Below, one piece after another: positions 20,737-63,952 of a stretch of 64,000 nucleotides of DNA. The stretch spans positions 636,579 to 700,578 of the forward strand of contig WELA01001939.1 of the NCBI GenBank assembly GCA_009602735.1, in the 5' to 3' direction. The position numbers and the translations under genes are program-made. The notes beneath the pieces are model-generated. The model saw only the letters and a program-made list of their open reading frames with translations, had not been told where the DNA came from and made no database searches. How positions within the stretch are numbered: position 1 is the stretch's first letter; each line of letters opens with the position of its first letter. The DNA is from Mesotaenium endlicherianum. Taxonomy: Eukaryota.

Positions 20737-21453
20737 TGTAATGAATCAGTATATTAGTGGATATAATATTCATTTAAATCTAATAGTTAATTAAGTTCAG
20801 CCTGCTGAACTTTAGTTAATAATCAGTCTGCTGGACTTTACATAATTATCAGTTTAATGACTCGGCCGAAAGCAGCAGGCTGAAGTCAACTTAAGTCAGC
20901 TTGCTGACACATTCTTTGACAGCCAGCTGACTTCCGTGCTCGGTAGCAGCGAACTGCCTTGATATGCATCTAAGTACGACATGCTAGATGAATGGCCAGA
21001 TGACATCCCTATGATGGATGGCTATTCGGGATGATGGGAGATGGCGGTGGATTTGGTTAACCGAGGTCCTACCAACGTGGTTAACTCCCGGGTAGGCGGT
21101 GCCATTGCACTAGCCGTTGAACAGTAAACTCATTCCATGTACATATGCAAGAATTGCTCCCGAGTTCGGCATTCGGAAACAAGGCCAACTCTCTTGTACA
21201 GCTTACTGAGAGGGATCTGAATCCAAGGCGAGAAGCCATTGATACGCACTGTCTTCCAACCTTGCTTATGTATGAGTTTACTGATTTGCATTATTGATGC
21301 TAGTTTACTCGCATTTGACTTACGAGTATTATTCACTGCTAGTGTGTTGNCCTTTGCCGAAAACCAGTTAACGGAAATACCATAAAGATTACTTGCTGAT
21401 ATAAAGATCTTTATTAATCGTTAATCGCCTATTTGGTAAGTCGATTCGTTTCA
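20737..21453 (+). repeat. 5' LTR of the intact family-A element
   Basis: Direct repeat of 28809-29528. Confidence 0.95.
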
Positions 21454-21454
21454 G

Positions 21455-21466
21455 TGGTATCGGAGC
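21455..21466 (+). promoter_or_regulatory. Primer-binding site, tRNA-iMet type
   Basis: TGGTATCGGAGC one base after the 5' LTR. Confidence 0.88.
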
Positions 21467-21487
21467 AGTTATCACAGTCTTCTTTGT

Positions 21488-22966
21488 ATGGTAAGGACAA
21501 GGTCTCAAACTAGCAACTCCCGAGACATGGAGAACCAGGATAACGAGAATGTCAAAAACCAGGCGGAAAGCCATGTAGCGGGAAACCGTACCTATTCGGA
21601 AGCAGTAGCGGATACTGCAGCTAGGGAGGCTGCAGATGAGGCAGCTGCTATTGCCTCAGTCGCAGCTCAGCAAGCTGAGGAGGAGATAGCCAGACTAGAA
21701 GCTGAACAAGTAGCAAAGGCCGCTGAAGATATACAAAGGAGGGAAGGACAGCCAGCTGACGAGCGCACTGTTGAAGAACTTATGGCATCAAGGGCCAATG
21801 TTCTGAACCCACCTCCTGCCGTACAACTCAATGTACCCCTAGGTCAAATACGTGACCGGCTGAATGCGGCAGGAATTGCTGCTGCAGGAGCGAGAGGGAT
21901 TGTTGAGGACACTACTCAGCGAGTAGATGCCAATGCTGCTGCTGCATTTGCTAATCTACCACCCCAAAATGTAGACTTGGGAGCATTGTTCGTTCAGATG
22001 CAGTCGCAAATGGCGACCATGTATCAGTCCCAGCAGGAGGACAAAAGAATCATAATGTCCCTACTCCGGGACAGAGACCAACTGGGGTCTCACACCACTA
22101 GTGGTGGTGGCCGAGGGCCTAGTAAGCCCAAGCCGAAACCTCCCCAGGACTATGATCCTGAGGGAAACAGAAAATATTACCTGATCAAGTTTCTCGCGGA
22201 TGTTGAGCAGTGGCTGGAGAACTACCCAGAACTGCAAGATTACGAGAAGGTCAGGCACACCGGTGCGCTACTGAAAGGCAGTGCCGCAGACTGGTGGCTT
22301 TACTGGAAGGAAGAGCGTAAGGCTCGGCAACTCGGTGACCCTACGTGGGTAGAGTTTGTCGAGAAGTTGCATGAGAAGTTTGATGTCATCAACCAGCAGG
22401 AGAAAGCTATCTATGCGATGATCTCCCTGACACTGAAGCAGACCACTTCAGTTGCTGAGTTTGCTCAAAAGTTCCAAGAGAACATGATGAAGCAGCCTGA
22501 TTTGCCAGAACGGTATAGGATAGCATACTTCAGGTATGGCTTGAAATCCGAGGTCTCTGGTCATTTTGCTGAGAAAAAGTATGAGAAACTGGCTGACTTG
22601 ATCCAGGATGCTGACGCCTGGGATCAGCAGCAGTTCAATCACAAGCGCCAGAGTAACGCTTTGGTGTCTAAGATTGTCAAAAAGCCCCACGGTTCCTACA
22701 ATGCAGTTGAAGGAGACCAGGCTGAGGATAATCAGGGTGATGAATATGAGTATGAGGACAATGCTATTCAGTCTAGAGGTAGAGGTGGTCCCCCTCGAGG
22801 TGGCTATGGAAGGGGTGGTGGTAGGACTAAGCCGAGACCAGCCTCAGCAAAATCTACTTGCTACCATTGTCAGCAGAAAGGCCACTACAGAGAACAGTGT
22901 CCGGTCAAGCACCTGCCTAAGGTCGAGAGAAAAGACCAGCCTTTAAAAGACAGCAACAGTCAGTAA
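21488..22966 (+). CDS. gag: Gag, 492 aa, with retrotransposon gag core and CCHC zinc knuckle
   Basis: LKGSAADWW...TWVEFVEKL core; RGG tract; [14 protein letters not shown] knuckle. Confidence 0.93.
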
Positions 22967-25900
22967 TCCAGTCTACTGACTGTGAGGATGCTAGAGATAG
23001 TGAGTCGTCACTAGCTGCCCTCGTAGCAGGTATTATGGGTCCTGCTGAACTGGATTCACTATGCATGCCTGACAAACAGATAAAGGAGACCATCAGTAAT
23101 ATAGACGTCCAGAGAGTGCACACTCTGGATGCTCTTGTTCCACCTGATGTCCAACATTTCTTTGCTACGTCAGGAGAACAATGCGAAAGTCAGGAAAAGA
23201 CAGTCCCCCCTATCCTACTGCATTGCATGATTGCAGGTAGGAAGGTGAGGGCATTTGTTGACGGAGGGGCGTCACATACTTTTATCCACAAGGACTTAGT
23301 TAAGCGGCTAAGGCTGCCTACTGTCACCCAAGGGAATAGAAAAATATTCCTTGGAGATGCCTCAAGTATCCCGGGAGGAGTTATAACCAAGCCTATTGAG
23401 GTCCAGTTAGGTTCTGGCATTGCAGTTCTAACTGAAACGCTTACATTTGAGGTACTCAACACTGGCTTTTATGATCTCGTGCTAGGCAGGTCCTGGCTTA
23501 ATAGACATCAAGCTGAAGTGTGTTGGAGCAGAGGTACAGTTAAAGTGAGAGGAGCCAGTGATGGGCAGACTGACTTGGCACCCACCAGTGCTCTTCCTCT
23601 TGTCCTGTGTGGATGGCAAATGAAGGAAAAGAAGAGGCTTCCAGAAGGATGCAAGTTGCTGAATGCAATGGAGTTCGTCAAAAGCTGGAACCAGAAGGAA
23701 GACAGAATGTTCTGTCTGCTGCTAAGAGAGGTACCTCCTCAACCTGAAGAAGTGGTTGAGAAAAAGGTAAGCCCTCCGGAGCACCCTACTGCTGCAAAAA
23801 TTGTTGCTCAGTACACTGATGTGTTTAACATGCCTCCAGGACTACCCCCTAAAAGGGAAGTAGATCATAGGATTGATCTATTACCTGGTAGCCAGCCACC
23901 CTGGCAACGCACTTATGGCTTGTCTTATTTGGAGAGCGAGGAGTTGAAAACACAGATTGCAGAGCTGGAGGAAAATGGTTACATTTCTCCCAGTAAATCA
24001 CCGTACGGCGCACCTATCCTATTTGTTAAGAAAAAGGATGGCAGTATGCGGATGTGTGTGGATTACAGAGCCCTGAACAGAATTACAGTAAAGAACAAGT
24101 ATGCTTTACCCAGAATCGAGGACTTGCTTGATACCCTGTCTGGCGCTAAGGTGTTCAGTAAGATAGATCTCAAGAGTGGTTATCATCAAATCAGAATTGC
24201 TGAGGGGGATGAACACAAGACTGCTTTCCGCACACGTTATGGACACTATGAGTTCAACGTGATGCCATTTGGACTGACTAATGCTCCTGCTACCTTTATG
24301 GGTGCTATGAATGACATTTTCAGACCTTATTTGGATAAGTTTGTGCAAGTTTTCCTGGATGATATTTTAATTTTCTCTAAAGATGAAGCTCAGCACACTG
24401 AACACTTAAAGAAAGTGCTGGACACTCTGCGGAAAAATCACTTGTATGCTAAAATGAGCAAGTGTGATTTCTTTAAGGAAAGTATTGAATTCTTAGGCCA
24501 CGTTGTCAGTAAAGAGGGCATCAGTGTGGATCCTAAGAAAGTCCAGACCATAAGGGACTGGCCAGTACCACAGTCTGTCTCTGAAGTTAGATCCTTCCTC
24601 GGGTTGGCTAACTACTATAGGAGATTTATTGAGAATTATTCCACAAAGGCCAGTAAACTGACTGACCTTACTAAGAAAGACATCGGGTATGTGTGGGGGG
24701 AAGAGCAGCAGGCTGCCTTCCAGACCCTTAAAGATGCCCTTTGTTCTGCCCCAGTGCTAGCCGTGTATGACCCCAGCAAACCGGTGCAGGTGGTTACTGA
24801 TGCCTCTGATTTTGCCATGGGTGCTATTTTGTTGCAGCCTGCTGACAAAACCACAAAGGATGGTAAGGTACGGCAGGAGTGGCATCCTGTGTTGTATGAG
24901 TCTATGAAATTTAATCCAGCGGAGATTAATTACTCAGTGCATGATAAAGAGCTGCTAGCTATCATTCATGTACTCAAACAGTGGAGAGCATACTTACATG
25001 GTAAAGCTTTTAAGGTGATTACAGATCATCTAGCTCTGACCCACTTTCAGAAGAAGTCCAAGCTGTCGAGGAGGGAGAACCGCTGGAGCCAGATGCTGGA
25101 GCAGTTCCAAGTCCAGATCGACTACAAACCAGGGAAGTTGAATCCTGCTGATGCACTCTCTAGAAGACCTGACTTGCAAGAAAGGAACTTTAGTCAGCAT
25201 GCTGTAGATAAAGTCCTGTGTGCACTCACTTCACTAAAGGTGAAAAAGTCCTTCCTTGAACAACTTAGGAAAGCCTACCTTTCTGACCCAACATTTGAGC
25301 CCAGCCCCACTACTGGTGTGTGTCGTGCTACTGCACTCGGGTATAAGCTCAAGGGAGGGGTCTGGGTGACTGAAACCACTTCAGGCAGGCTGAAGCTGGT
25401 CATTCCTAATAACTTGGAAATAAGGTCTCTCTTACTGAGTCAAGCTCATGACAGTCTCCTGGGTGGACATTTGGGGCAGGCCAAAACTGTTGGCAAACTG
25501 GCAAAACATTATCATTGGGAGGGGTTACCCCGGGAGGTCTTGAAATATGTCAAGTCCTGTGACCAGTGTCAGAGAAATAAGTCTCGGCACACACCACCCG
25601 GAGGTCTCTTGCAACCGCTACCCATCCCAGCGGGACGCTGGGAAACTATATCCATGGACTGGGTGGTCTCACTACCAAGAACTGCCAACGGGCATGATTC
25701 AATACTGGTAGTCGTGGATAAACTGACAAAAATGGTCATTTTTATCCCCACAACTGTCAAAGTGACTGCACTCGAAACAGCGAGACAGTTTTACAACCAT
25801 GTAGTATGCCAACATGGGCTCCCTTCTAATATCATCTCAGACAGAGACTCAAAATTCACCTCTAAGTTCTGGAGAGCTTTAATGGGGTTAATGGGAGTCA

Positions 25901-26751
25901 AACAGCTGCTCAGCACAGCAAACCACCCTCAGACTGATGGGCAGACTGAAAGAACTAACCGAGTTCTGCAGGAGGTGCTGAGAGCATATATTAACCAAAA
26001 ACAAGATAATTGGGATGACCTGTTGCCTCAAATTCAGTTTGCGGTCAACAGTGCGGTGCACGCGTCAACGGGCAAAACTCCTTTTGAACTCAGCCTGGGT
26101 AGAGTCCCTAAGTCTCCTCTAGATGTGCTAGGGGAATCTTTAACTCACCCTGAAGGGATTGACAACCCGGTCTCCCTCCAGTTAACTCAGGAGTTTGCTG
26201 ACACCCTGTCAGAAGTCCAACGAAACTTGCACACGGCCCAAGAAAACCAACAAAAATACGCTAATCAACACCGTCGGGAACTGACATTTTCCAAGGGGGA
26301 TTTAGTCAAACTGCATTCTCAGCACCTGTACCTCCCTGGTGTGGTCAAGAAAAAGCTTGGCCCTGTCTGGGTCGGTCCATATTCGGTGGTCCGTCGTGTC
26401 GGTCAGAATGCTTACAAACTGAACATGTCAGCTGAATACAAGGGGCACCCGGTCTTTAATGTCTCCTTCCTGGAACCGTACATCAAAGGTGATACACTGT
26501 TCACAGGTCGGTTCCCTGTCCAACCGGGACCGGTCCCCGCTGTCCGGGACGGCGACCCTGAGGAATATGAGGTCGATGAGATTTTAGACGCTCGCTCGGT
26601 CCGTCGATCGTCTAAATATGTCATGAAATACCTCATTCGATGGAAGGGTTACGATGCCTCTGGGGACACTTGGGAGTTTAAGGACCACTTGACCAATGCC
26701 AAAGGGGCGTTGACACGGTTCCACCTTCGGGCCGCTGGAGTCCCTCCATAA
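22921..26751 (+). CDS. pol: Pol (protease, RT, RNase H, integrase, chromodomain); frame opens at 22921, first ATG 23035, -1 relative to gag
   Basis: [41 protein letters not shown]...CDQC, ISMDWV...SDRD...QTERTN, WVGPY, YEVDEIL...YLIRWKGY. Confidence 0.96.
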
Positions 26752-42871: not shown

Positions 42872-43187
42872 CAGGCCCCAGGATTCGACCATCCTAAAAA
42901 CATCCGGCAATTTTTGAAAACATCAGGACCTGACTCCCATGATTTTTTAGGACATCCGATATTATTCGGAAGATGTTTTTATATTTCTTTGTTTTTGAGA
43001 GAAACATCTTTGTGTTAGAGGAAGAAATCCGAACAAAACATCCGTAAGCTATACAAGGAAATGCGTGACTTTGGACATCCGCTTCCAATGACCAGGATTT
43101 CGTTTGATATAATCTGAAATATGGTACAATTTTGAAAGCATCCAAAAAAGCAAATAACATAAAATTTATCTCAAATCCTGGGGCCTG
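42872..43187. mobile_element. hAT-type MITE, 316 bp
   Basis: 14-bp TIRs CAGGCCCCAGGATT / AATCCTGGGGCCTG; perfect 8-bp TSD GTCCAGAC at 42864-42871 and 43188-43195; internal ACATCCG repeats. Confidence 0.92.
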
Positions 43188-44829
43188 GTCCAGACTCTGT
43201 CATAATGAAATGCAGGGCGCTTTTAGGGCGTTGTCTCCTTGTTATAGCTGTTTCTAGAGCGCACTGTGGTCAAGTTTGGTTTGTCTTACCTGAATTAGGT
43301 CACAAATGGGGCCGGCTACAGCCCCCCTTTGAACAACGGACAAAGTTTCTCATCTGCGTCGCTAATAACTGGCTATAACCCTGTTTGAACCATGGAAATG
43401 TCGTTGTTTTTCTGTCTACCTTGTATCTTTTCGAGGCCGGCTGCAGCTCTTGGGGACATGGATAGTTGAAACTTGGCTATGCAACACTCTTTCAACCACT
43501 TGCGACCCAGGTGGGACGCTGGCCTTGGATCGAGACATCATCAGCGGTCAGTGAATTTCGCGAGGCTTGGAAAACCCTAATGGCCTGCTGGCTGCCTCCA
43601 GTTACCTGCTATATGGGCGTATTTCTTACTTTAGGTAAGCTCTCAAAAGCACACGTACACTCTACGCAACCTCGCAATGAGGTGTGCATCGTAGCGCAGG
43701 AACCGTAGACTGCCGTAGACTGTTTGTGGGCTTTAGACAGTCCATTTTACACACAAGTCTCAGAGGAGCTCATCGCTAGTCATCATCTCTGCAGCATCTG
43801 AAGTCACATCTTCAGCGCGTGCCAACTGGTGCCAACACAACCCGCGAATTTCAGCGCCAGCAGCGTAGAGTCGCCCGGAGCAGCCGACGCCTGCCTCAAC
43901 CTGCATGCCCAGCCGTGCCTGCTATATGGCCAGCTTTGGCCATCTACTTCACACGCACCGAGGCTGGAAAAACTTGCAGAGCCGGCTTGAAACTTTCCTA
44001 TCAAACAAACGAGCTAGGGTCGTTGTCGCGTTCGCATGCCCAGGCGACAATCCGGAGAAAGGTCGCCAAATTGTGAGACAGCACTCCATAGCACTTCAGA
44101 GCATACAAAGGTCGTTTCCAACCTTCATAACGCCCGCCATATCTCAAACTACTGCTGCACAGCTCTACACCGGTTTGCGCCGCCTCTTTTAGTTATTCAT
44201 CTACAAAGCTTGTAGCGTCCGATTGTCTGGTTTCTTTCCAAAGTTGAACTGTATTCGCTACATCGAATTTTGAAGACGCCTTTGGATTTACCCAACCAGC
44301 ACCCTTAAAAAGGTACTTACTCTTCCTTGGAAGTAGACCAAGAAGATTTGTAGCAATTGAACTTCCAGCAGGTACGTTGTAGCTATCGTTGTCCCTGGGT
44401 TGTGCTTTCATGAACTATTTATGGTGCTAGGGTTTCTGTTGACCGCGGAGTTTGAACTTTGGAGCTATTTATTTTGTCCTGACCATGGTTGCAAGATTAC
44501 GAGTGTAACTTGATGCCGTGTCGTTATTGATGTTCGAAAACACCGCGACTTACTTTCCCCTAATGCTTTGACATTTGGCCTCCTCTTCCGCCATGTCCAT
44601 GTTCTGCTTCCAGGAGGCAAACAACCTGTTATCTGATCCTGGTCTTTATAATTGGTTCTCGGTTTGTTTGTGTACTCCGACAATGCCCATTACTCCTGCT
44701 AACATTGGGCGACTTTGTTGAAGTAGGGGTACTTGGTTTGCTGCTAAAACTGTTGGTGTGGTGATACAGCTAGAAAGTGGCAAAAGTTTGTTTGCTAACT
44801 ATCTTGTGCTTGATTGGTTGCAGACCTGA

Positions 44830-44838
44830 ATGATATAA
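44830..44838 (+). promoter_or_regulatory. SAMDC-type tiny uORF (ATG ATA TAA) overlapping the small-uORF start by one base
   Basis: ATGATATAATG directly after a TTGCAG acceptor at 44823, the known plant AdoMetDC leader arrangement. Confidence 0.9.
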
Positions 44839-45303
44839 TGGAGCCAAAGTCTTCAAATTCCAGTAGTAATTCCAGGCAATACGAGAAATCCCTTGGTTAC
44901 GTAACAGAGGACGTGCGCCCCTGCGGTGGAGTTGACTTCTTCCGTTCCGCTGCTTACTCTAACGTACGTATAAACTTCGTTGGTTGCTGGGGTGACTTCT
45001 ATATGTCTTCGAATAATGCCTGGTACTGCATGAGTTGCAGCTGTTAGGTGTGCATCTTACAACGTGCTCGCTATATCAAGCTCAAAAATTGTCGGGATGT
45101 TCAATAGGGTGGTTCCCTACAGAGTGAGTACGCATTACTGTCACCAATTTGCGGACAGGCCATAGTGAGCATCTTTTGGTGTGACATGTTTATGAAGGCT
45201 ATTCTGCCCTCCTGGTTTCAAGAACCTGCCAAATTCTCTGGTCTAATTCTTTGACTTGTTTTCAATGCTTGTGCTGCTGCAGTGCGTCCGCAAGCCATCC
45301 TGA
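44838..45303 (+). CDS. SAMDC conserved small uORF peptide, 48 aa; join(44838..44963,45283..45303)
   Basis: MEPKSSNSSSNSRQYEKSLGYVTEDVRPCGGVDFFRSAAYSN|CVRKPS*; matches the plant AdoMetDC leader peptide pattern (LGY..EDVRP.GG...FRSAAYSNC.RKPS); GT-AG intron 44964-45282. Confidence 0.93.
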
Positions 45304-45446
45304 TACGGTACGGGCGTTTATGTTACACGGTTAGGCAGATTAAGTATTAGATATCTTTAGATTTTAGTCACTAGCCTTAGGCCCCTAGAGAGCCCGATCT
45401 TAGCCACGCAGCATCTCAGCTTGCGCTCTTCAAGACAGTTGCAACC

Positions 45447-48420
45447 ATGGCCCCAGAAATTGGAGCTGGAGCTCCCCCCTCTCTCCCATGCCCTGGGTTC
45501 GAAGGCTTTGAGAAGCGTCTGGAGGTGGAGTTCTCTCTGCCTGCCCGTGCAGGCCTCCTGACATCTGTCCAGATGGTTGATGCCACTGGCCTCCGTGGAA
45601 TCCCGCGCTCTGAGCTTGACACCATGCTCACTGCAGCCCAGTGCACCATTGTCTCTCAGCTCTCCAACGAGCACTTTGACTCGTATGTCCTTTCCGAGTC
45701 CAGCCTCTTTGTCTACCCAACCAAGGTTGTCATCAAGACATGTGGCACCACCAGGCTGCTGCAGGCGATTCCGGAGCTTCTGGACTCGGCCGCGCGCCTC
45801 AACATGGTTGCCCGCCGCTGCAAGTACACCCGGGGCACATTCATGTTCCCCCAGGTGCAGCCTGCACCACATGGAAGCTTCTCGGACGAGGTGAAGACCC
45901 TGGAGGAGCACTTCGGCCACCTGGGAGGTGGTGGGAAGGCGTACGTGATGGGAGACATGACCAAGTTCCCCAACTGGCACATCTATGTGGCTGACGCCGA
46001 GGGGCTGTCCCGGCTGGAGGAGCCCACCTACACTCTGGAGATGTGCATGACGAAGCTTGACAAGGTGGCTGCTGGGCAATTCTTCCAGGATGCGGGCTTT
46101 GCCAATGCCAAGGCAGTCACAAAGGCCTCTGGAATCTCTGGGCTCCTTCCTGGCTCCCAGATCGACGACTTCAGCTTCGAGCCCTGCGGGTACTCGATGA
46201 ACTCCATCGAGATGAACGCCCACTCCACCATCCACATCACCCCGGAGGACGGGTTCAGCTACGCCAGCTTCGAGACCATGGGGTACGGCAACGCTGAGCT
46301 GGAGCTGGGAGAGCTTGTCAAGAAGGTGGCCGCTGTGTTCAAGCCCGGCTGCTTCTCCCTGGCCGTGCATGCCAACGGCCCAGTGGGAGTGAAGGGAGCA
46401 GGCGCTTGGGGCGGGGTGCTTCCCTCCTTTGAGGGGTACTCGTGCGAGGGGACCAACAAGCAGGAGCTCCCCTTTGGCAGCGCGACTGTGTTCCACACTT
46501 ACAAGGCAAACGAGGCTGCCTTTGGACTGGAGTCTGTGGCACCCCTGCCCCTCTTCGAGGCTGCGCAGCAGAAGGCAGCTCCAGCCATGGCTGTGGACCA
46601 GGTGGTGCCTGTGGTGGAGAAGCAGGCTGCAGAGTCGAAGCCCGCGGGAAGGAGGCCCATGTTCCATGCGCAGCCCGTACTGGAGACCACTCTAGAGTTT
46701 GGCCCGGACGCGGCCGCAGTGATGGCTGCCTTCAACGCCAGCCTGGTGGGGACCACGAGCAGCGATATGGATGCATGCATCCGCAAGCAGGTTACGAGCA
46801 CCGGGGCCGAAGAGCCCTTTTACGTGATGGACTTGGGGGTGGTTCTGCGCCTGTGGAAGACGTGGACGTCCGCCATGCCGCGCGTGCAGCCCTTCTACGC
46901 CGTCAAGTGCAACCCCGACCCCGCCCTCCTGTCCCTGCTGGCGGCCCTTGGGGCTGGTTTCGACGTGGCCAGCAAGTCGGAGATCACAGCGGTCGTGACG
47001 CGTGGCGTCAGCAGCGAGCGCATGATCTACGCCAACCCCTGCAAGCTGCCCTCGCACATCACCGCCGCGGCCAAGGATGGCGTGCTGCGGACCACCTTTG
47101 ACTCGGAGTCAGAGCTCGTCAAGTTGAAGAAGTACCACCCGGGCGCGCACGCGGTGCTGCGCCTGCGCGCCGATGACCGCGGCGCGCGCTGCCCCCTGGG
47201 CGTGAAGTACGGCGCCGAGCTGGAGGAGTGCGAGCACCTCCTCAAGGTGGCGCAGTCTCTGGGCATCCATGTGGCGGGCGTGGCCTTCCACGTGGGCAGT
47301 GGCGCTGCGGACTCCCAGTCGTACACGGACGGCATCGAGACGGTGCGCTCGCTCTTTGACATGGCGGAGGCCCTCGGCATGGCCCCCATGACCCTGCTGG
47401 ACATCGGCGGCGGCTTCACGTCCAAGGGCGGCAGCGGCATGGGCTTTGCGCAGGCGGCCACGGCGATCAACGAGGCGCTCGACGAGTACTTCCCCGAGAG
47501 CATGGGTGTGCAGATCATTGGCGAGCCCGGGCGGTTCTTTGCGGAGGCGCCCTCCACGCTGGCGACGCACGTGTTTGGCACGCGCTTCCGCGGCAAGGGC
47601 CACGCCCGCAAGGCGGAGTACTGGATCAACGACGGCATATACGGCTCGATGAACTGCCTGCTCTACGACCACGCAGAGCTCACTGCCCGGCCCCTCATGG
47701 TGGCCTCGGCCGGGGCTGGCGCGAAGGGTGGCGCGTCGTGGCTGTCGCAGAAGATGCTGCCATCGACCATCTTTGGCCCCACCTGCGACGGCCTGGACAC
47801 TGTGCTGCGCGATGTGTGCCTGCCCCAGCTGGAGTGCGGTGACTGGCTGGTGCGTGCCGTTCTCTGCTCTGCTTGTTTGTGCCTGGGGTTGGTGCTGCTG
47901 AGTTGGTGCATTATGCATACTTTTTTTCCCTGTTGAGCTGGTCAGAGATGAAGAGGACTTGCCTTTCAGTTGTAGCTGCGGAGTATTGAACAGGATTGCT
48001 GCTTTGCATCTGGTTGCAGTGAAAGCTGCCACGGCAGCTTCTTATGGTATGAATGCTGGTTGGGATGTAGTGTGCGGTGATGTTCTGTGTTTACTGTGAC
48101 TTATGTGAGCATTTTTTTGTGGATTGCAGGTGTTTCCTCGCATGGGAGCATACACTCAGGCAGCTGGGACGAGCTTCAACGGCTTTGACACCAAGGACAT
48201 TCGCACTGTGTATGTCTACTCAAGCATGAATGCATACGACGAGGATCTGTCGTGTCTCGATGAGCCTGAAGGGGTGGACATTGAGTACAATGACAGTTCT
48301 TCCGACACATGCGAGGAGATCTGTGCTGACATGTATGGCACTGGCTCAGACACTTTTGAGGGTGTGTCATCCTTTGAGCGGGGCGAATCTTCAAGTGGCA
48401 GTGATGATGACAATTTCTGA
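45447..48420 (+). CDS. SAMDC-ODC: Bifunctional S-adenosylmethionine decarboxylase / ornithine decarboxylase fusion, ~897 aa; join(45447..47849,48130..48420)
   Basis: SAMDC: GFEGFEKRLE, YVLSESSLF, KTCGTT, FEPCGYSMN, TIHITPEDGFSYASFE. ODC: PFYAVKCN, YANPCK, FHVGSG, LDIGGGF, EPGRFFA, NDGIYGS..LYDHA, FGPTCDGLD, and GDWL|VFPRMGAYT restored by splicing 47850-48129. Confidence 0.95.
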
Positions 48421-50245
48421 GAGGCTGTTTTCTTTCTTGTTGAGGAGGGGAGAGTGTTTGCAGAAGCAGAGATGCTGTTTTGTTCCCAGTGTTACAGGAG
48501 GTTGATTTTTTCTTCTGTAGTGGCTGAGTTTGGCTAAGCTTTGGGGGCCTTTAGCGTAGCGATCATATGACTAGTTAACTTCCAGAACAACAAACTGACT
48601 TTTGTAGTGGTTTTGATTATTAAAAGTCCATAGTTGACAGGGTGCCTGTCAGCTATGATGAGTACTAATGAGGTGCACAGATGTTGCGGTCCCTTTATGG
48701 AGATTCCCTTTTTTTGCATGTGTATATGCGACCTGCTAGCAGCTGCATGCAAGAAAAGATAATGCTGATACTTCTGTAAATATACTAGGCCCCAGACCAC
48801 ACAGTCAGACGCTTTTAAAAATAGGGGGCAGCATATAACATGCGTGAGGATGAATGGATGCCCTCTTTGCATGGTATAGTGGAAGGTGATGTATGTTGGA
48901 GGCAGATGTAGTACAATCTTCTAGTCGATTGTTAACAATTTGACAACCCATGGTTGTTTTAGACCTTGTCAAAGACTTCAAACAGAGTGATGACTGTAAG
49001 AAATGATTATACTACGGAATGACAAATCTAATCTATCCTACTCAACATATTGAAGGTTTGCAACAAGAAATGTCGCAAACCGAGGTTTGACAAGTGGTCA
49101 AATTTGATGGATTTCACGTGGACCGCGCTACATTGACAAACCAACCCTCGTAAAGGCTTCTCCTTGCAAAGAAGCCTTCATTGCAGCAGGAAGTAGCTGC
49201 TATAGTTAGCCACCCGCCCACCCTCTAACCCTCCCCTTCATGGGGAAGTGCACGAGGCAGGCACCAAAAGCTCGTGCCAGCGCCAGTCACAGCCATGCAC
49301 AATAGTTGTTTGTGTTTGCTTGGTGCGTTTAATGTCTATTGACCTCAAGACAGCAAGAGTGCAGTTGTTAATGAAGCGTTGTTTTTAGAAGATTGAATAT
49401 AGTTGTCTTAACTTAGTCAAGAATATATTTCCGTAGCATCATGTAGGAAAAGACTAGAGAAGAACAGAGGACACGCAAGATTGTAGCATACTACTACTCC
49501 TACTAATCTTTTCTAAATCACCTTCTTTCTTTCGAAATCAGGCAATTTGAACACAAATTGTCAAATGTCTACTTTGAAGCTAAATCCTATTCTTTGTTAA
49601 TCCATCTTGCAGAGTTTCCTACTGCACTTATAGATGTTTTTCCAAGTGAGCTGTATTACCTGCCCTTAGACTTTCTTCTTAATGTTCATCTCATTTCTTT
49701 TCATTCTTCTTTCTTTGGTCAACTGAGTGATGAGAAGCCCAAGGATATGTTCATGTGTGTCCCTGTCCCAACTCCCTTGAAAATTAAAAAATCACCAGCG
49801 AAATATTGACCTGCAAAGCAGTTCCTGAAGATAGTCCATTCCGAAAGTTGATACACTGCTTTGTGGAACAGGATCTACTCCATTACGCATGACTCCTGGG
49901 GCTATTCGGTATGCATAATGATATGCGCATGAAGGTGAGCATACATCCTGCGACTATATAACATTATACATGCAGATCAGAATGAGAAATGTGAGTGCAC
50001 GCTGAGTTCTGAGGGGGCCCCTTTCGGGAATCTAACAGACAAATGATAGCCCTCAAAAAGGTTGGTGCACCAGCATTCTTCTGTGAGCACCCCACGCAAC
50101 AGTGCCACAAGAAACCGATTGCCAAGTCTTAAAAGTCCAGGCTTGATAGCCGTCCTCTCTCAGAAGCAGAGCGGGCCGGCAAAATCTGGAGCCGGAGAGC
50201 GAGGCGAAGAAAATCGTCAGTGCCGTGCCGGCAAAGTAAGCTGCA

Positions 50246-52395
50246 TCAACTGTCGTCACCGTCGGTGCTCATATCCCAAAAGGCCACTTCGAGGCGCAGC
50301 ACTTTCAGAAACGCCTCCTTCGCCTCCACAAACACCCCCCGGCTGCACCCTCGCTCGCGCTCGCCCTCTTGCCCGCGCGCGGCAGCTCCCTCCAGCGCGC
50401 GCTGGGCGGTAACCCCGAGCAGAGAGCAGTAGCTCGCAAACTCGGGGTTGCCCCACCGCTGGCAGCACTCCTGGAGGTCCGCTGGCGTGTGGGCCCCCCT
50501 CTCGGTGCAGCGGGACCACGCCTCGCAGTACACGAGCTCCACGGCCCACAGCGCTGTCAGGGCCACCTCGTACGGCACGGCGGGCCCACTGAGCTCCTCC
50601 AGGTACCTGCTCGTTGCATGCCGAGGAGAGACAGGTAAGAGGTGACAAGCCCCGGAGCCATGAAACCGATTGACAAGCGTCAGCAAAACTGTCGACCACC
50701 CTCCGCAAGACCGCTGCCGCCGGCCCCGGTGCCAACCCACTTTAGCAAACCCGCAGACTGGTGTCATCAAGCCCGTGGACCGATGTTAGCAAAACCTCAA
50801 GCTTCAAGGAATAAGGTTTGTGTTTCTCAGGATGCTGTCAGTGAGTGACGTCGCCACAAGTGGAGCACGGGTACACGCATGCGGGCCTGGAGGCTGAGCT
50901 GCCATCACGTAGCAGAGGAGTACTGCGCACGCACGCGGCTTTCCAGCTGGCCATGCCGCTTGCCAGCTGGCCATGCAGCTTGCCAGATGGCAATGACACG
51001 ACATCAGGGCATGGTACGACAGCGCATGATATCACGGCACGATAAGTCATGGGGCATGCGCCACACTGGCAGCCCTGTTCTGCAAATAAGAAAAACAAAA
51101 AAAACAAAGAGCACATCTTGGCAGCCACGGTGCTGTTTCTAGGCGTGAGGAAGAAGACGAAACTAGGGACTGGGGCCGGAATTGTATGGTCTCGCGGACC
51201 ATCCATCTGCATGATGTGCATCAAAGGGAAGGAAAACGCGTAGGGGGTTTACAACTGCAGCCCATACAACACTTGCTCCCTCCCTCTGCTGGAGCCCGCC
51301 TGCGGCCGCACAGGGGACAGGTGGCGCGCGACCACACCCCAGCTTTTGAGAGCGCCTCAGAGAAGGTCTAAGACAAAAGTCCGATATCTGAACAGAAGCA
51401 CACTCATCCTCTGCCTGCCAGTTGTTTTGCGTTTATGTACAGCACTTCCTTCCCTCTGCTGGTCTAGCAGTTCGTTCTAGAGCTACAGGACAAGTTTTGG
51501 GATACCTGTGTGGTGTGTGAGTGAGAGGGAAGCATGCCTTAGCAGATACTCAGGATCCCGTTCTGCTGTGAGGTACTACTTTGAGCCAGCTGCAGTTTAG
51601 CATCACTCATAACTTCCAATTTTCCGGAGTGGGTGAGGGGCGAGAGGCGAGGGGTTGGTTGAGGGGGCCTGGCCCTGCACCTCTGGAAATGCAACTAGAA
51701 TCTTCAGATTTGAGAACGACTAAGCTGCGCACCATTTGGAACGAGTGTGGAGACTGCAGAATGAGATCCCGTGGCAAAGTACCCACCTCATGTACCAGAC
51801 GTTAGCCTCCAGGGGCTGCAGCCCCGCCAGCTGGACCCCACGCTTGGATGCCAACTCCTTGAACCACTTCAGCTCCGCATCGAGGGCAGAGAGGCTCCCA
51901 AGGAGAACCTCGAAGTCGCCAGGTGGCGACGTGCTCGTGGCCCCGGCATCGTCGTAGTTCTTCTGGGGAAGCTTCAGGAGGGTGCTGGCCACGAAGCGGA
52001 CTAAGGATCTCACAAAGAGGTAGTCTTGAGCCTGCAGTCCACCGAGCAACTTACGCTCGTGTCAAGCTCATAGAAACCCCGAGCGGCGGATGTGACAGTG
52101 AGGTTTACACTCTGGTAGAAAGACACTGTCTCGCCAGACAGATTTTATTAGGATATATTTCCACATCATAGGAATTACTGCAATTAAGCTGATATGACCT
52201 GAGGCTGTAAAAGGCGTGCAACAGGTGGCAGCAGAAGTATATGCCTACCAGCCATCTATCAAATTGTTTCGTTGACACTGTTCCCCCTCGCACAGACTCG
52301 AGGAAAGGGTGCCTGATGGCCCTTGAATAGTCTACTCCATGATGAGATAACCACTGCAAGATGGACGGCGCCGATCCTTCCTGGCCTGCCATCAT
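50246..52395 (-). CDS. TENA_E: TenA/THI-4 family thiamine-salvage protein, TENA_E type; exons 52395-52249, 52031-51787, 50606-50246
   Basis: AIRHPFL...FDRWL|AQDYLFV...ELKWF...R|YLEEL...LWAVELVY...RWGN...LEVAFWDMS; GT-AG junctions are phase-compatible. Confidence 0.88.
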
Positions 52396-53394
52396 GTCCT
52401 TTGATTGCCCGGTCTCCTGGTCGGTCCTCGCCTCTTGACCTCCTGCGTGCACGAGTTTGCAACCCTATGAAGCACTGTGGAATTTGCTCTGCAAGGAGCG
52501 AATGTCCAATGGAAAAAGCTACCACGCCATGCACATTCTGCAAGCGCGCAGCATGAAGCTAAATGAAGCAGAACACTATACTTATCTCCTGCCAATGTCT
52601 GGTCTCTAGGCGAATATGCTTCCTTCGCTCTCATTCCGCCAGTAAGTCGGACATCCGCCACGTGAATGAAGCAGCATTAGGAGAACGCTTTCGGCCACTT
52701 TCGGCTGTCTTTTGGCATCGTTGACTATCCTCACCAATCCTCACAAACGTTCTCAACTTATTGCTCACACTCGCACGCAGCTTGCACGCATTACCACGTT
52801 TTGAACGAATTGAAGTCTCTGAATGGGTCTGGGAGAGTCGGTCGGGGCTCTTCGCATGCCAGCACACACCAGCTCACAGCGCTAAGGAGCCTTTAAACGC
52901 TTCTTGATTTGGTGAAGGTCGCAAGCACTTCATGCAACAGTTATGACGTGGCCCGGAACTTTCAACTGTTTTGATTCGTGAACTATGCAGTGATTATTTT
53001 CCTGCAACTTATTCAGCTGCAGTTGTTGATGTAAATCATGGTAAAGCGGCTTGTCGTTAGATTATAGTTCCAAAAAGTACAAATTATGTACTTCGTTTTT
53101 CACCTTTTGCTTCATACGAGTATAGCGAGAGTACTTCCACGATGTATTATTATTCATGACACCTAAGTCGCTGGACAAAATAAGTCCAGATACTTCAGAT
53201 GCATTCAATACTGAATGCTTCATAACAATTATGCTCAATTTGGTAACTAACGCTATTTACTACAGAACCTGGTCGATATTTTCCATGAATCTCTTCACAT
53301 GCAGGTGCAAAGTGCAAGCTCAACGTCTTATTTAGGTCTTTTATGCCTCTCCACTTTCCTGCATGAGGGGGGGGAGGGGGGGCGAGATGAGGGA

Positions 53395-54138
53395 NNNNNN
53401 NNNNNNNNNNNNNNNNNNNNNNNNNNNNNNNNNNNNNNNNNNNNNNNNNNNNNNNNNNNNNNNNNNNNNNNNNNNNNNNNNNNNNNNNNNNNNNNNNNNN
53501 NNNNNNNNNNNNNNNNNNNNNNNNNNNNNNNNNNNNNNNNNNNNNNNNNNNNNNNNNNNNNNNNNNNNNNNNNNNNNNNNNNNNNNNNNNNNNNNNNNNN
53601 NNNNNNNNNNNNNNNNNNNNNNNNNNNNNNNNNNNNNNNNNNNNNNNNNNNNNNNNNNNNNNNNNNNNNNNNNNNNNNNNNNNNNNNNNNNNNNNNNNNN
53701 NNNNNNNNNNNNNNNNNNNNNNNNNNNNNNNNNNNNNNNNNNNNNNNNNNNNNNNNNNNNNNNNNNNNNNNNNNNNNNNNNNNNNNNNNNNNNNNNNNNN
53801 NNNNNNNNNNNNNNNNNNNNNNNNNNNNNNNNNNNNNNNNNNNNNNNNNNNNNNNNNNNNNNNNNNNNNNNNNNNNNNNNNNNNNNNNNNNNNNNNNNNN
53901 NNNNNNNNNNNNNNNNNNNNNNNNNNNNNNNNNNNNNNNNNNNNNNNNNNNNNNNNNNNNNNNNNNNNNNNNNNNNNNNNNNNNNNNNNNNNNNNNNNNN
54001 NNNNNNNNNNNNNNNNNNNNNNNNNNNNNNNNNNNNNNNNNNNNNNNNNNNNNNNNNNNNNNNNNNNNNNNNNNNNNNNNNNNNNNNNNNNNNNNNNNNN
54101 NNNNNNNNNNNNNNNNNNNNNNNNNNNNNNNNNNNNNN
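53395..54138. other. Assembly gap, 744 N, flanked by poly-G tracts
   Basis: Run of N. Confidence 0.99.
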
Positions 54139-61005: not shown

Positions 61006-63952
61006 TCAGAAGCGCCCCCCCCGTCCCCCTCTCCACCCCCCTCTCCCTCGCCCCCTGCCCCTCCCCCTCCCCCGCCTGTCGTACTGGCCACTCCCGTACT
61101 CCCCAGCAGTTGCGCTTTCCTCGTCGGCAGAGCCGAAGTTGAACATGCTCTGCTTTAGCTGCTCTGCGGCGCTCAAAGGCCTGCTCCCTCCCGCCTGCGC
61201 AGAAATGCAACAAAAAGATCAGGAAAGGGGGCAGCACAACGATCACTCACTCGGCGGCGCCAACACGAAGCCCTCCTCGCGCTTCGGCCGCATTCGAGCT
61301 CGTGCTGGCACAGCCAGCCTCAGCACGGTGGGCGGCCTTCTGTGGCATGAAGCTCTCTCGGCAGCGGCAAGACAGGCTTGCCCTGCCGCCCTGGCAAAGC
61401 GAACCTTTGCCTGATGATGCAAAGGTGAACACTCACTGTAACTGCGACCAGCGCAGCGAGCAGAGAGCCTCCCCCTCTTGCCGGGGCCTGACGCCAGCCA
61501 AGTGGGAGGGCGGCAGCCCTGGAAAGTGCGTGCCTAAGCCCTTGAGCTGCAGGACCAGAGCTTAAATTTGAGAAGCCTACCGCACTTGATAGGACTTGAA
61601 AGCACCTGAGAGTTTAGACCTAAGACTTTATTTCAAGTACTCGGGACCCACGCCTTTGGACCTAAACTGTTGGGACCTGAAGTGTTGGGACCTAAAGTGG
61701 TGGAATATAACCCTTCAAGACCTAAGCCTTGGGACCTTGGAGGCTCGAGGAGGGCGAGAGAATAGAGGGGCCTGTCTCCCGCCCTTGCCAGCAGCGCCCG
61801 CGCAGCGCACGCAGCTGCGGGGGGGCAACCCGGAGCCCCGCCACCTCCGAGGCGACAGCTCACAGGGGCTTCAAGGTATAATCAACCTTGCGCGCAAGCA
61901 CATTGCTGAGGCGGCACCAATGCATGCGCACATCTCCAGAAACTTGAACTCCAAACCCTATATCCACAGATCCGTAAACCCCAAGCCCCCAGCCCGGCGC
62001 TCCTAGTATCTACAAGACCCTAGCCCCACAACCCCGGCCTCGCAGCCCTGGCCCCCAGTCCCTGGCCCCACACTTGCACAAAGCCCTTGTCGTGAGCCCC
62101 CCCCAGCCCCTAACAGTTGGCCCAACGCTGGAGAGGGGAGGAGAACCGTCCGCATTCGCACCAGAGCGTCCTCCATGTCGAGCTCCCGCTGGAGCTGCCA
62201 AGCGAGCTCCTCGTCCGACACGAGCTCATTCCAGCTGGCATTATCACCACCACCTCCAGCACCAGCACCAGCAGCAGCACCAGCAGCAGCAGCAGCAGCA
62301 GCAGAATGCAGCCCTTGCGCATCCCCTGGAGCGGCACTCGGCCCAGTTGCGCCTCCCCCGCCAGCCGCCCGGGCGGCCTGCCGGGCTTCCCACTCGTCCA
62401 GAGTTATGCCCTCAGGCTCCTCCTCCTCCCCCCTCTTCCCCCGGCCCCTCCCGCGCCTGGCCGCCCACGGCGCGCGTGCGCGCTCGCGCTCGGGGTTGAG
62501 CCTGCGCTCCAGAAGCTTCTGAGCAGCTGCCTTGTTCTGCGGAGGAGGAGGAGGAGAAGGAGCAACCCCCGCCGTTGCCGCCGCCCCCGCCGCTGCTTCC
62601 CGCACAGCCTGGTGCCTGGCCTCGTCCGCGCCCGCGCCCTTGCGCTCTCCGACTCCGCCAGCTGTGCCGATGCCAGCTGTACCGCCACCGCCGCCATCGG
62701 CGCAGCGGCCCTCTGCACCGCTGCCAGCTGCGCCACCTTCGCCGTTGCTGCTGCTAGCTGTGCCCCCGCCGACGTTCCGCCTGCTGCCGGCATCGCCGCT
62801 GCTGCCTCCGTCGTGCCTGCTGCTGCCGTTGTCGCGCCTGCTGGCGCTGTCGCTGCTCCCGGCATCACAGCTGGCCCTCCCAACGGCAGCGTCGGTGGCA
62901 GCCTGCGCACTGCCGGTAGCAGCCACCCTCCCTGTGGCAGGCGCAGCTGGCAGCCCCCCAGGGGCAGCTGCAGCAGCAGCAGCGGCGGGAGTGGACGGAG
63001 GAAGTGGAGAGGAGCTAGCACCGCTGCCATATCTCTCGTCCGTTGCACGTTCCTCCCGCGTGTCAGCAGCAGCGCCTCCTAGCAATGGAGCGCGGGCCCC
63101 ATCAGCCCCCTCAGGTCTTGCTTCTGCATCCTTCCCACCATCGCGGCCCCCCTCCTTCCCCCCCGCCCCCCGCGCTCTCAGCCGGTATGGCTCTGCCCCG
63201 GGCCGCACCCGCACTGCAGGCTTGGGCACCTTCTGCAAGGGCACCCCCTCCCCAGGCTGAGGCCCGGGCTCTCCCAATGTAGGTGATGCGTTGCTGGCCT
63301 GCTCCCCTCGCCCCTTACTGTGCTGACGCCGTGACACGCCGGGCTGGGAGGCAGCAGCAGCAGCAGCAGGCGAGGAGGAGGAGGAGGCGGAGGAGGAAGA
63401 AGCAGCAGCTGCTGCTGCCATCCCTCCCGCCCCGGCTGGGGTGAGGTCCCCGCAGGGCATTGGGATTTTCCCGCGCTGCCCACCCTCACTTCTCCCCTGG
63501 GGCGAGCTAAGCTTCCCCATGCTGGGGGCCACCATGCGTCCAGCTGGCGCGTGCACAGCTGGCGCATGGTGCACAGGTGGCGCCTGGCGCTTGGCAGCAG
63601 GGCGGGGATGAGCGCCGCTAGTTCCAGCAGCAGGTGGAGAGCTGCTCCTCTCGTCCCACCCTCCCCCCCCTTTCTTGGCAGCAGAGCCAACTCCAGCTGT
63701 CGCCCCGGCGCTCTCTTCCTCCTCGCCCCCTGCAGGGTCTATTGAGACACCTACAAAGGGCGGGGGCCCCGAGTTGCCACTTGGCAGCGCGCCGGGGGAG
63801 GAGCCTGCCAGCACAGCCCTGGAGAATACCGCGCGCTTCCGGTCCGTCTCCCAGGCCTCGACAAGTGGCCCCACCCTGCCGCCCAGGACTCTGACGTTCT
63901 AGTTGTCCAGTAAGATGATGCCGCTTCGCACCGTCGCATCCGTGAGCTCCAC
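61006..63952 (-). CDS. 3' part of an RMI1/TDRD3-like OB-fold (DUF1767-type) protein gene with C-terminal RGG box; exons ~63952-62162 and 61194-61006; in-frame TAG at 63901-63899
   Basis: VRSGIILLDN*NVRVLGGRVGPLVEAW resembles the OB-fold end; ITLDEWEARQ, DEELAWQLQRELDMED, AEQLKQSMFNF and RGRGRGRGGWRGGRGGRF* resemble the plant TDRD3-like C-terminus. Confidence 0.7.

Follow-up and report, generated by a model that had tools for sequence, protein, structure and literature searches.

A 64,000-nucleotide stretch of the genome of Mesotaenium endlicherianum (GenBank assembly GCA_009602735.1, contig WELA01001939.1, positions 636,579 to 700,578 of the forward strand; hereafter the window) carries an expressed gene in which a predicted S-adenosylmethionine decarboxylase (SAMDC, also AdoMetDC) and a predicted ornithine decarboxylase (ODC) lie on one polypeptide chain. 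We consider it probable that this gene keeps what is likely the ancestral state of green plants and is not a new fusion, the latter being the view taken in a preliminary description of the window made from the sequence alone.

One spliced mRNA encodes the SAMDC-linker-ODC chain. Beginning at the SAMDC start and extending over most of the ODC domain, 45447-47849 forms a single open frame in which neither a stop codon nor an intron separates the domains, and removal of one GT-AG intron (47850-48129) gives a product of 897 aa that ends at 48420. An existing gene model (P0001, label Mesen1, 897 aa) agrees with this product at every position (100% identity) along the 801 aa used as query. Raw poly(A)/PCR RNA-seq reads from two studies (run X21, 6095 reads aligned; run X24, 15240 reads aligned) cover the linker continuously and at undiminished depth, with the reads of the stranded run on the + strand, and show neither a splice joint nor a peak of molecule ends between the domains. 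Only three introns are present in the RNA reads (44313-44823, 44964-45282 and 47850-48129), and all four exons are held by a 3302-nt contig of a third run, X17, the kind of which was guessed as RNA. Misassembly and split transcripts are excluded by the continuous reads of two runs and the four-exon contig. That assembly or annotation joined two neighbouring genes has, in our estimate, a negligible probability; no evidence in its support was found, raw reads of two studies span the fusion and many species show the same architecture in their transcriptomes and chromosome-scale genomes. The single frame reported in the preliminary description, the positions it gave for E84|S85, K487, D741 (in the motif LYDHA) and C780, and the RNA-seq check it proposed across the domain junction were thus all borne out, and the domain order it had likened to that of Plasmodium is supported on one expressed chain by the frame, the Pfam matches and the RNA. 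The features of the gene, all on the + strand, are as follows.

44145..44312, +: exon 1, a non-coding part of the 5' leader; a cluster of RNA 5' ends lies at 44136-44160 and the exon contains no ATG
44313..44823, +: intron 1, in the leader, 511 nt, GT-AG; 124 reads in X21 and 262 in X24
44830..44838, +: tiny upstream open reading frame (uORF), two codons and a stop, in a weak start context; its final base also serves as the A that opens the start codon of the small uORF
44838..45303, +: small uORF, 48 aa, spliced in RNA (44838-44963 and 45283-45303), with a penultimate Pro and a strong start context
44964..45282, +: intron 2, inside the small uORF, 319 nt, GT-AG; 183 reads in X21 and 386 in X24
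45320..45334, +: third uORF, four codons, in a weak start context, downstream of the small uORF and ahead of the main ORF
45447..46502, +: class 2 SAMDC domain, aa 1-352, with the predicted self-cleavage site E84|S85 at 45696-45701
46503..46754, +: linker, aa 353-436
46755..48222, +: ODC domain of fold type III, dependent on pyridoxal 5'-phosphate (PLP), aa 437-832 (K487, D741, C780, D781), split by intron 3
47850..48129, +: intron 3, in the C-terminal sheet domain of the ODC, 280 nt, GT-AG; 340 reads in X21 and 555 in X24
48223..48420, +: acidic tail rich in Ser, Asp and Glu, aa 833-897, predicted to be disordered, followed by the stop
48421..48668, +: 3' untranslated region, with the main peak of molecule ends at 48585 and poly(A) reads at 48668

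Both halves of the protein carry the signatures expected of active enzymes. The Pfam domain SAM_decarbox (PF01536) was matched at aa 17-352 (E 5.6e-106), Orn_Arg_deC_N (PF02784) at aa 466-699 (E 6.8e-72) and Orn_DAP_Arg_deC (PF00278) from aa 701. On the SAMDC side, E84, S85, C99, S250, H263 and E267 align with E67, S68, C82, S229, H243 and E247 of the human enzyme (1jl0/1msv), in which Glu67 and Ser68 flank the cleavage site and Cys82, Ser229, His243 and Glu247 are catalytic. The conserved cleavage site is consistent with the earlier prediction that processing would yield an 84-aa beta chain and an 813-aa alpha-ODC chain. On the ODC side, K487, Y732, Y740, D741, C780 and D781 align with mouse K69, Y323, Y331, D332, C360 and D361, the last five of which are named as conserved in functional ODCs (PMC3543441). 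Equivalents of mouse K69, H197, E274, R277, Y323, Y331, D332, C360 and D361 are all present, each of them kept in at least 113 of 120 fused homologs, and all 12 catalytic positions tested over the two halves are kept in 115 of the 120.

The AlphaFold model, built from 126 aligned sequences, has a mean predicted local distance difference test value of 85.4 and a predicted template modelling score of 0.59, and contains two confident domains; the linker is predicted to be largely disordered at aa 373-406 and helical at aa 410-429, and its length ranges from 26 to 236 aa among the 120 homologs. The modelled SAMDC domain superposes on the human proenzyme 1jl0 with Z 41.3 (root-mean-square deviation 1.8 over 308 aligned residues), and the modelled ODC domain on Trypanosoma brucei ODC 1f3t with Z 44.0 (1.7 over 369). 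PDB searches returned no chain covering both domains, and a complex prediction for the SAMDC and ODC domains, made without an alignment, scored 0.00 and speaks neither way. Acidic tails of 45-100 aa occur in the fusions of Zygnematophyceae, a liverwort, Klebsormidium and the organism labelled Chlat1, and post-ODC tails of less than 20 aa in the fern, Selaginella and chlorophyte fusions examined; a degradation or phosphorylation signal would be a guess at the role of the acidic tail.

The identity of the substrate of the C-terminal half deserves separate consideration. The arginine decarboxylase of a chlorovirus (2nva) ties with the ODC fold at Z 44.0, therefore the fold leaves the substrate unsettled, and it counts against a firm assignment that a preference for ornithine over lysine or arginine is read from the sequence, where Asp at the position of mouse 332 favours ornithine. 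It is nevertheless unlikely that this half prefers lysine or arginine in vivo or acts as a regulatory pseudo-enzyme for the SAMDC. Substrate switches have occurred before among fold-III ODC homologs (PMC10407285) and in some fused homologs the ODC half has degenerated (P0375, P0424, P0455), whereas the nine residues listed above are retained here, as are the residues of ornithine type to which the preliminary description had drawn attention.

The gene, with its start near 44145, opens with a 472-nt leader that contains three uORFs and had previously been overlooked. The small uORF encodes the AdoMetDC leader peptide (PF08132, E 1.7e-16). In the known circuit of plant SAMDC genes, a tiny uORF of 2-3 aa overlaps by one base a small uORF of 48-55 aa, and the small uORF represses the main ORF at high polyamine levels (PMC2811004). 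The pair found here (2 aa and 48 aa, a one-base overlap and a penultimate Pro) conforms to this pattern. Gene models P0029 and P0047 (label Chlat1), as well as that of Closterium (P0034), run the PF08132 leader and the fused ORF together; the leader therefore lies upstream of fused genes elsewhere too. Since the ODC sits on the same chain, the circuit would, by analogy with plant SAMDC genes, gate both activities through polyamine-dependent translational repression. About 10% of the X24 reads carry other letters at 45318, 45322 and 45337, one of which falls in the start codon of the third uORF; these variants are nearly absent in X21 and are possibly a library artefact or another allele. No unusual RNA structure was found in 45283-45449 (z 0.71) and no Rfam family in 43000-51000.

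A search with the full-length protein gave 609 matches, the best 120 of which were listed. All of the 120 contain both PF01536 and PF02784, and they extend from prasinophytes to liverworts, Selaginella and ferns. Fused proteins among the matches listed come from land plants (Marchantia, Riccia, Calypogeia, Selaginella, Adiantum, Ceratopteris), streptophyte algae (Klebsormidium, Closterium, Netrium) and other green algae (Trebouxia, Coccomyxa, Bryopsis, Tetraselmis, Cymbomonas, Mantoniella, Crustomastix). Several green-algal fusions (P0048, P0049, P0068, P0116) bear the name 'Mitochondrial 2-oxoadipate and 2-oxoglutarate transporter' in NCBI, a misnaming that probably arose from confusion over the gene symbol ODC1. 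The Mesotaenium ODC half is 45-60% identical to the 120 standalone ODCs listed; those with names belong to seed plants and Sphagnum, apart from one short Myrmecia protein, and standalone SAMDCs with names among the matches listed to mosses, Chara, a liverwort, lycophytes, ferns and seed plants. No protein labelled Mesen1 is present among the 120 matches listed in either the standalone SAMDC or the standalone ODC search, a weak negative as the whole genome was not searched. The earlier statement that plants normally encode the two enzymes separately holds for the seed plants and mosses sampled and fails for the sampled liverworts, Selaginella, ferns and most green algae.

The SAMDC halves suggest the direction of change. 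SAMDC trees were obtained by quick searches on 66 and 30 chosen rows with SH-aLRT support only; in these, the earliest branches are fused algal proteins, and the standalone SAMDCs of land plants are interspersed with fused ones. Holding 12 standalone apart from 18 fused SAMDCs was rejected by the approximately unbiased (AU) test (p-AU 8.6e-64). A standalone SAMDC of Calypogeia (P0248) ends in the post-ODC tail of the Marchantia fusion (score 97, reached by 0 of 2000 shuffles), which three unnamed relatives of P0248 share (scores 79-101 overall, 0/2000 shuffles each), and a post-ODC tail on a standalone SAMDC is the remnant expected of an internal loss of the ODC. One further protein, P0375, consists of a SAMDC and a decayed ODC half that lacks the Lys and Cys motifs. 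Because standalone SAMDCs nest among fused ones and a liverwort retains the tail relic, the fused state is likely to be ancestral in green plants, and the standalone SAMDC of flowering plants likely descends from a fused enzyme. An intact-looking SAMDC joined to a decayed ODC half without the PLP-binding Lys and/or the Cys motif was observed in P0375, P0424, P0455, P0487, P0397 and P0418; such proteins are possible fission intermediates or may contain regulatory pseudo-ODC domains. A search with hidden Markov models (HMMs) for an ODC or hinge remnant in the tails of 119 standalone SAMDCs found none in 118, the exception being P0401.

These data leave very little room for the earlier proposal for this locus, in which a standalone SAMDC gene of plant type joined an ODC gene recently and in this lineage alone. 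The SAMDC half and the leader are indeed of plant type and no intron separates the domains. However, all of the 120 matches listed, across chlorophytes and streptophytes, are fused, standalone SAMDCs are nested among fused ones in the trees of the SAMDC domain, one of the separate domain phylogenies that the preliminary description advised, a standalone SAMDC retains the post-ODC tail, and many parallel fusions in the same order would be required. With a spread over the Viridiplantae and nested standalone SAMDCs, the direction was likely the reverse.

An ancestral fusion in green plants has to be weighed against several observations that tell against it. The AU tests were run with LG+G4 on subsets chosen after earlier trees, and the standalone SAMDCs in the trees were the best matches to this query and were analysed without an animal or fungal SAMDC outgroup. 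The tail match failed against the fusion of Calypogeia itself (P0015; 1384 of 2000 shuffles reached the score) and was weak against the Mesotaenium protein (10/2000), and scores of this kind are inflated by low complexity in the tails. Neither hornworts nor Mesostigma appear among the labels of the matches listed, and for Chlamydomonas, Volvox and Bathycoccus the ODC and SAMDC accessions are separate (PMC6356823). On the ODC side, the AU test rejected a simple split of the ODC within land plants (p-AU 0.015) and did not reject (p-AU 0.27) a tree with the standalone land-plant ODCs placed outside every green fused ODC; fission on the ODC side is therefore no more than a possibility. In the ODC trees, which were quick searches on subsets, the ODCs of seed plants and Sphagnum form a clade of their own inside the streptophytes. 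We infer from these sequences that the standalone ODC of seed plants and Sphagnum would be an older paralogue and not the broken-off half of the liverwort and fern fusion.

The architecture is not confined to green plants. Both domains were found in 41 of 133 additional representatives at 50% identity; the named fusions among the 20 representatives looked up are those of Cyanophora, Leptophrys, Cardiosporidium, Selenidium, Chromera and Diphylleia, and thus include a glaucophyte (Cyanophora), three alveolates (Cardiosporidium, Selenidium, Chromera) and a CRuMs flagellate (Diphylleia). The records of both Diphylleia and Leptophrys stem from transcriptomes, in which prey sequence may be present. 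The fusions of Diphylleia and Cyanophora (P0382, P0386) are sisters in the ODC trees (support 96-97) and are grouped in a SAMDC tree, which may reflect transfer, contamination or long-branch attraction. Four proteins (P0388, P0385, P0381, P0406), one of them from the insect Ephemera, have two or three tandem ODC domains and may be gene-model joins. A bacterial cluster in the ESM Atlas (90 members, mostly Actinomycetota; score 0.83, a lead only) combines a class 1 AdoMet_dc domain, present in 88% of members, with a fold-III decarboxylase and is likely an independent version of the same pairing.

The bifunctional enzyme has been called unique to malaria parasites (PMC3253432, PMC3940083), and the preliminary description took the algal fusion to be independent of it; given that alveolate, glaucophyte and CRuMs fusions exist and that a single clade of fused ODCs was not rejected, that assertion is not supported. 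In the sequences compared, Plasmodium was represented by Chromera, Selenidium and Cardiosporidium. One origin shared with the Plasmodium enzyme and several origins are both compatible with these sequences. A tentative extension of the ancestral-fusion reading, rather less likely than not, is that one very old eukaryotic fusion, repeatedly split, lies behind the green, glaucophyte, alveolate (Plasmodium-type) and CRuMs proteins. Fused proteins exist in five non-green genera (Cyanophora, Cardiosporidium, Selenidium, Chromera and Diphylleia), the SAMDC precedes the ODC in 170 of the 170 two-domain proteins compared (near-duplicates included), and all 35 fused ODC rows lie on one side of a branch with 95 support, away from 12 standalone rows that include animal ODCs. 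One clade of 22 fused as against 18 standalone ODCs was not rejected (p-AU 0.55, in a test from which 24 of 64 rows, green standalone ODCs among them, had been dropped), and loss of the ODC half is frequent in green plants. Against this, 17 standalone ODC rows share the fused side of the same branch, the deep nodes of the tree lack resolution and vertical descent of the ODC alone could yield the same tree. The linkers of green and non-green fusions have no detectable similarity, and an HMM of the hinge preceding the ODC scored streptophyte fusions only. For diatoms, red algae and Symbiodinium, the two enzymes have separate accessions (PMC6356823), the domain order may be forced by the N-terminal position of the SAMDC beta chain, and the bacterial cluster, though only a lead, suggests that the pairing can re-evolve; the possible prey sequence in two transcriptomes and the absence of Plasmodium from the sample also weaken the case.

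A fusion ancestral in green plants that arose independently in alveolates and other groups, or was spread by horizontal or endosymbiotic transfer, stands at somewhat less than an even chance. Green and alveolate fused ODCs form separate clades (98-99 support), identity to the Chromera ODC is about 35% with a much more divergent SAMDC half, and the distribution is patchy; this history would, however, require at least three fusions in the same order, and a single fused clade was not rejected. A more speculative proposition, doubtful at present, is that the malaria AdoMetDC/ODC is a survivor of a single ancient eukaryotic fusion also inherited by green plants, glaucophytes, alveolates and CRuMs, that the flowering-plant SAMDC is a truncated descendant of it, and that the plant uORF circuit arose as a means of shutting down the two branches of spermidine synthesis simultaneously.

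The Mesotaenium protein can be compared with several known systems. Like Plasmodium AdoMetDC/ODC, it is encoded by one ORF on one mRNA with an N-terminal AdoMetDC, a hinge and a C-terminal ODC, its two reactions run in parallel, which points to regulation and not channelling, and an obligate ODC dimer is expected (PMC3253432). The Plasmodium enzyme has a hinge, forms a 330 kDa complex and shows reciprocal modulation of its activities, with no full structure as of 2011 (PMC3253432, PMC3940083), a lack ascribed to poor expression of the parasite protein (2011 review, PMC3253432). In contrast to the Plasmodium chain of about 170 kDa, the algal chain has 897 aa, and its gene carries the plant tiny/small uORF leader and an acidic tail. 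A heterotetrameric state, reciprocal allosteric control and feedback of putrescine on the ODC also belong to the Plasmodium type. The closest solved SAMDC is that of potato (1mhm, E 1.9e-71). The putrescine-mimicking residues of the potato enzyme, R18 and R114, correspond in position to the basic R24 and K126 of the alga. The uORF pair with its one-base overlap is that of plant SAMDC genes (PMC2811004), whereas the algal alpha chain, unlike standalone potato SAMDC, carries a full ODC domain. The ODC half shares fold and active-site residues with eukaryotic fold-type III ODCs (mouse 7odc, T. brucei 1f3t, seed-plant ODC) but is fused behind a SAMDC and placed under a SAMDC leader, and the seed-plant ODC differs from it in appearing to be an older paralogue. 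Bacterial SpeD-SpeDC and AdoMetDC-aminopropyltransferase fusions also unite polyamine-synthesis activities in one chain; they combine a class 1 AdoMetDC with a pyruvoyl ODC or a synthase, whereas the algal protein combines a class 2 SAMDC with a PLP-dependent ODC (PMC10407285, PMC12803844).

The proposed mechanism is as follows. The chain would cleave itself at E84|S85 to generate the pyruvoyl group, and the ODC halves, as in other members of their family, would dimerise head-to-tail to give an (alpha-ODC/beta)2 complex in which each SAMDC is tethered to the ODC dimer by a flexible linker. The complex would supply decarboxylated S-adenosylmethionine (dcAdoMet) and putrescine, both substrates of spermidine synthase. 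As the two reactions run in parallel, the benefit is likely to be co-regulation rather than channelling; at high polyamine levels ribosomes would translate the inhibitory small uORF and both activities would go off together. The earlier claim that the fusion fixes the two activities at 1:1 stands for the number of polypeptides, which is so fixed, and not for activity, which the fusion does not fix. In evolutionary terms, the fused gene would already have been present in the last common ancestor of the Viridiplantae, and several losses of the ODC half would have left mosses, seed plants and others with a standalone SAMDC.

Elsewhere in the window, the following features were recognised.

50246-50785, -: last part of a TENA/THI-4 family gene (E 1.1e-05), which converges on the fusion gene
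21440-26751, +: Ty3/gypsy chromodomain retrotransposon, with gag and pol in overlapping ORFs
5700-6662 and 10677-12416: further protease-bearing fragments

The window contains 745 N bases, and the very low GC content and stacked ORFs at 53001-54000 probably mark a gap. Long overlapping ORFs occupy the GC-rich region 62003-63898; two of them were scanned and neither gave a Pfam match.

No description of a plant or algal SAMDC-ODC fusion was found in the open-access literature, covered mostly as titles and abstracts with key reviews and supplements outside the scope, and no statement on a green fusion occurs in the available portions of PMC12803844, PMC2811004, PMC10407285, bioRxiv 2026.04.30.721942, PMC6356823, PMC3476827, PMC9992855 and PMC2075485. 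Table 2 of PMC6356823 gives the Micromonas accession XP_003057072.1 under both ODC and SAMDC without comment. Public databases contain the architecture under one-sided names, and the novelty left open in the preliminary description is reduced accordingly, as the fusion is found widely across the lineage in databases, though not described in the papers found. The chance that it has already been noted somewhere in print is about even; a prior functional study seems less likely.

The fusion, likely a bifunctional enzyme under the uORF circuit of plants, is less special to this genome than was earlier supposed, and bears instead on the evolution of plant polyamine synthesis and on the uniqueness of the malaria enzyme. 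If the proposed history is true, the textbook picture of plant polyamine synthesis would be reversed, the standalone SAMDC of seed plants being the derived, ODC-less form. In the seed-free models Marchantia, Ceratopteris and Selaginella the enzyme is fused and databases name it after one half or the other only, and a single uORF-gated mRNA for the supply of putrescine and dcAdoMet would be directly testable in Marchantia. The compact plant version of 780-900 aa makes the question of inter-domain regulation tractable, and the claim that such a fusion is unique to Plasmodium is weakened.

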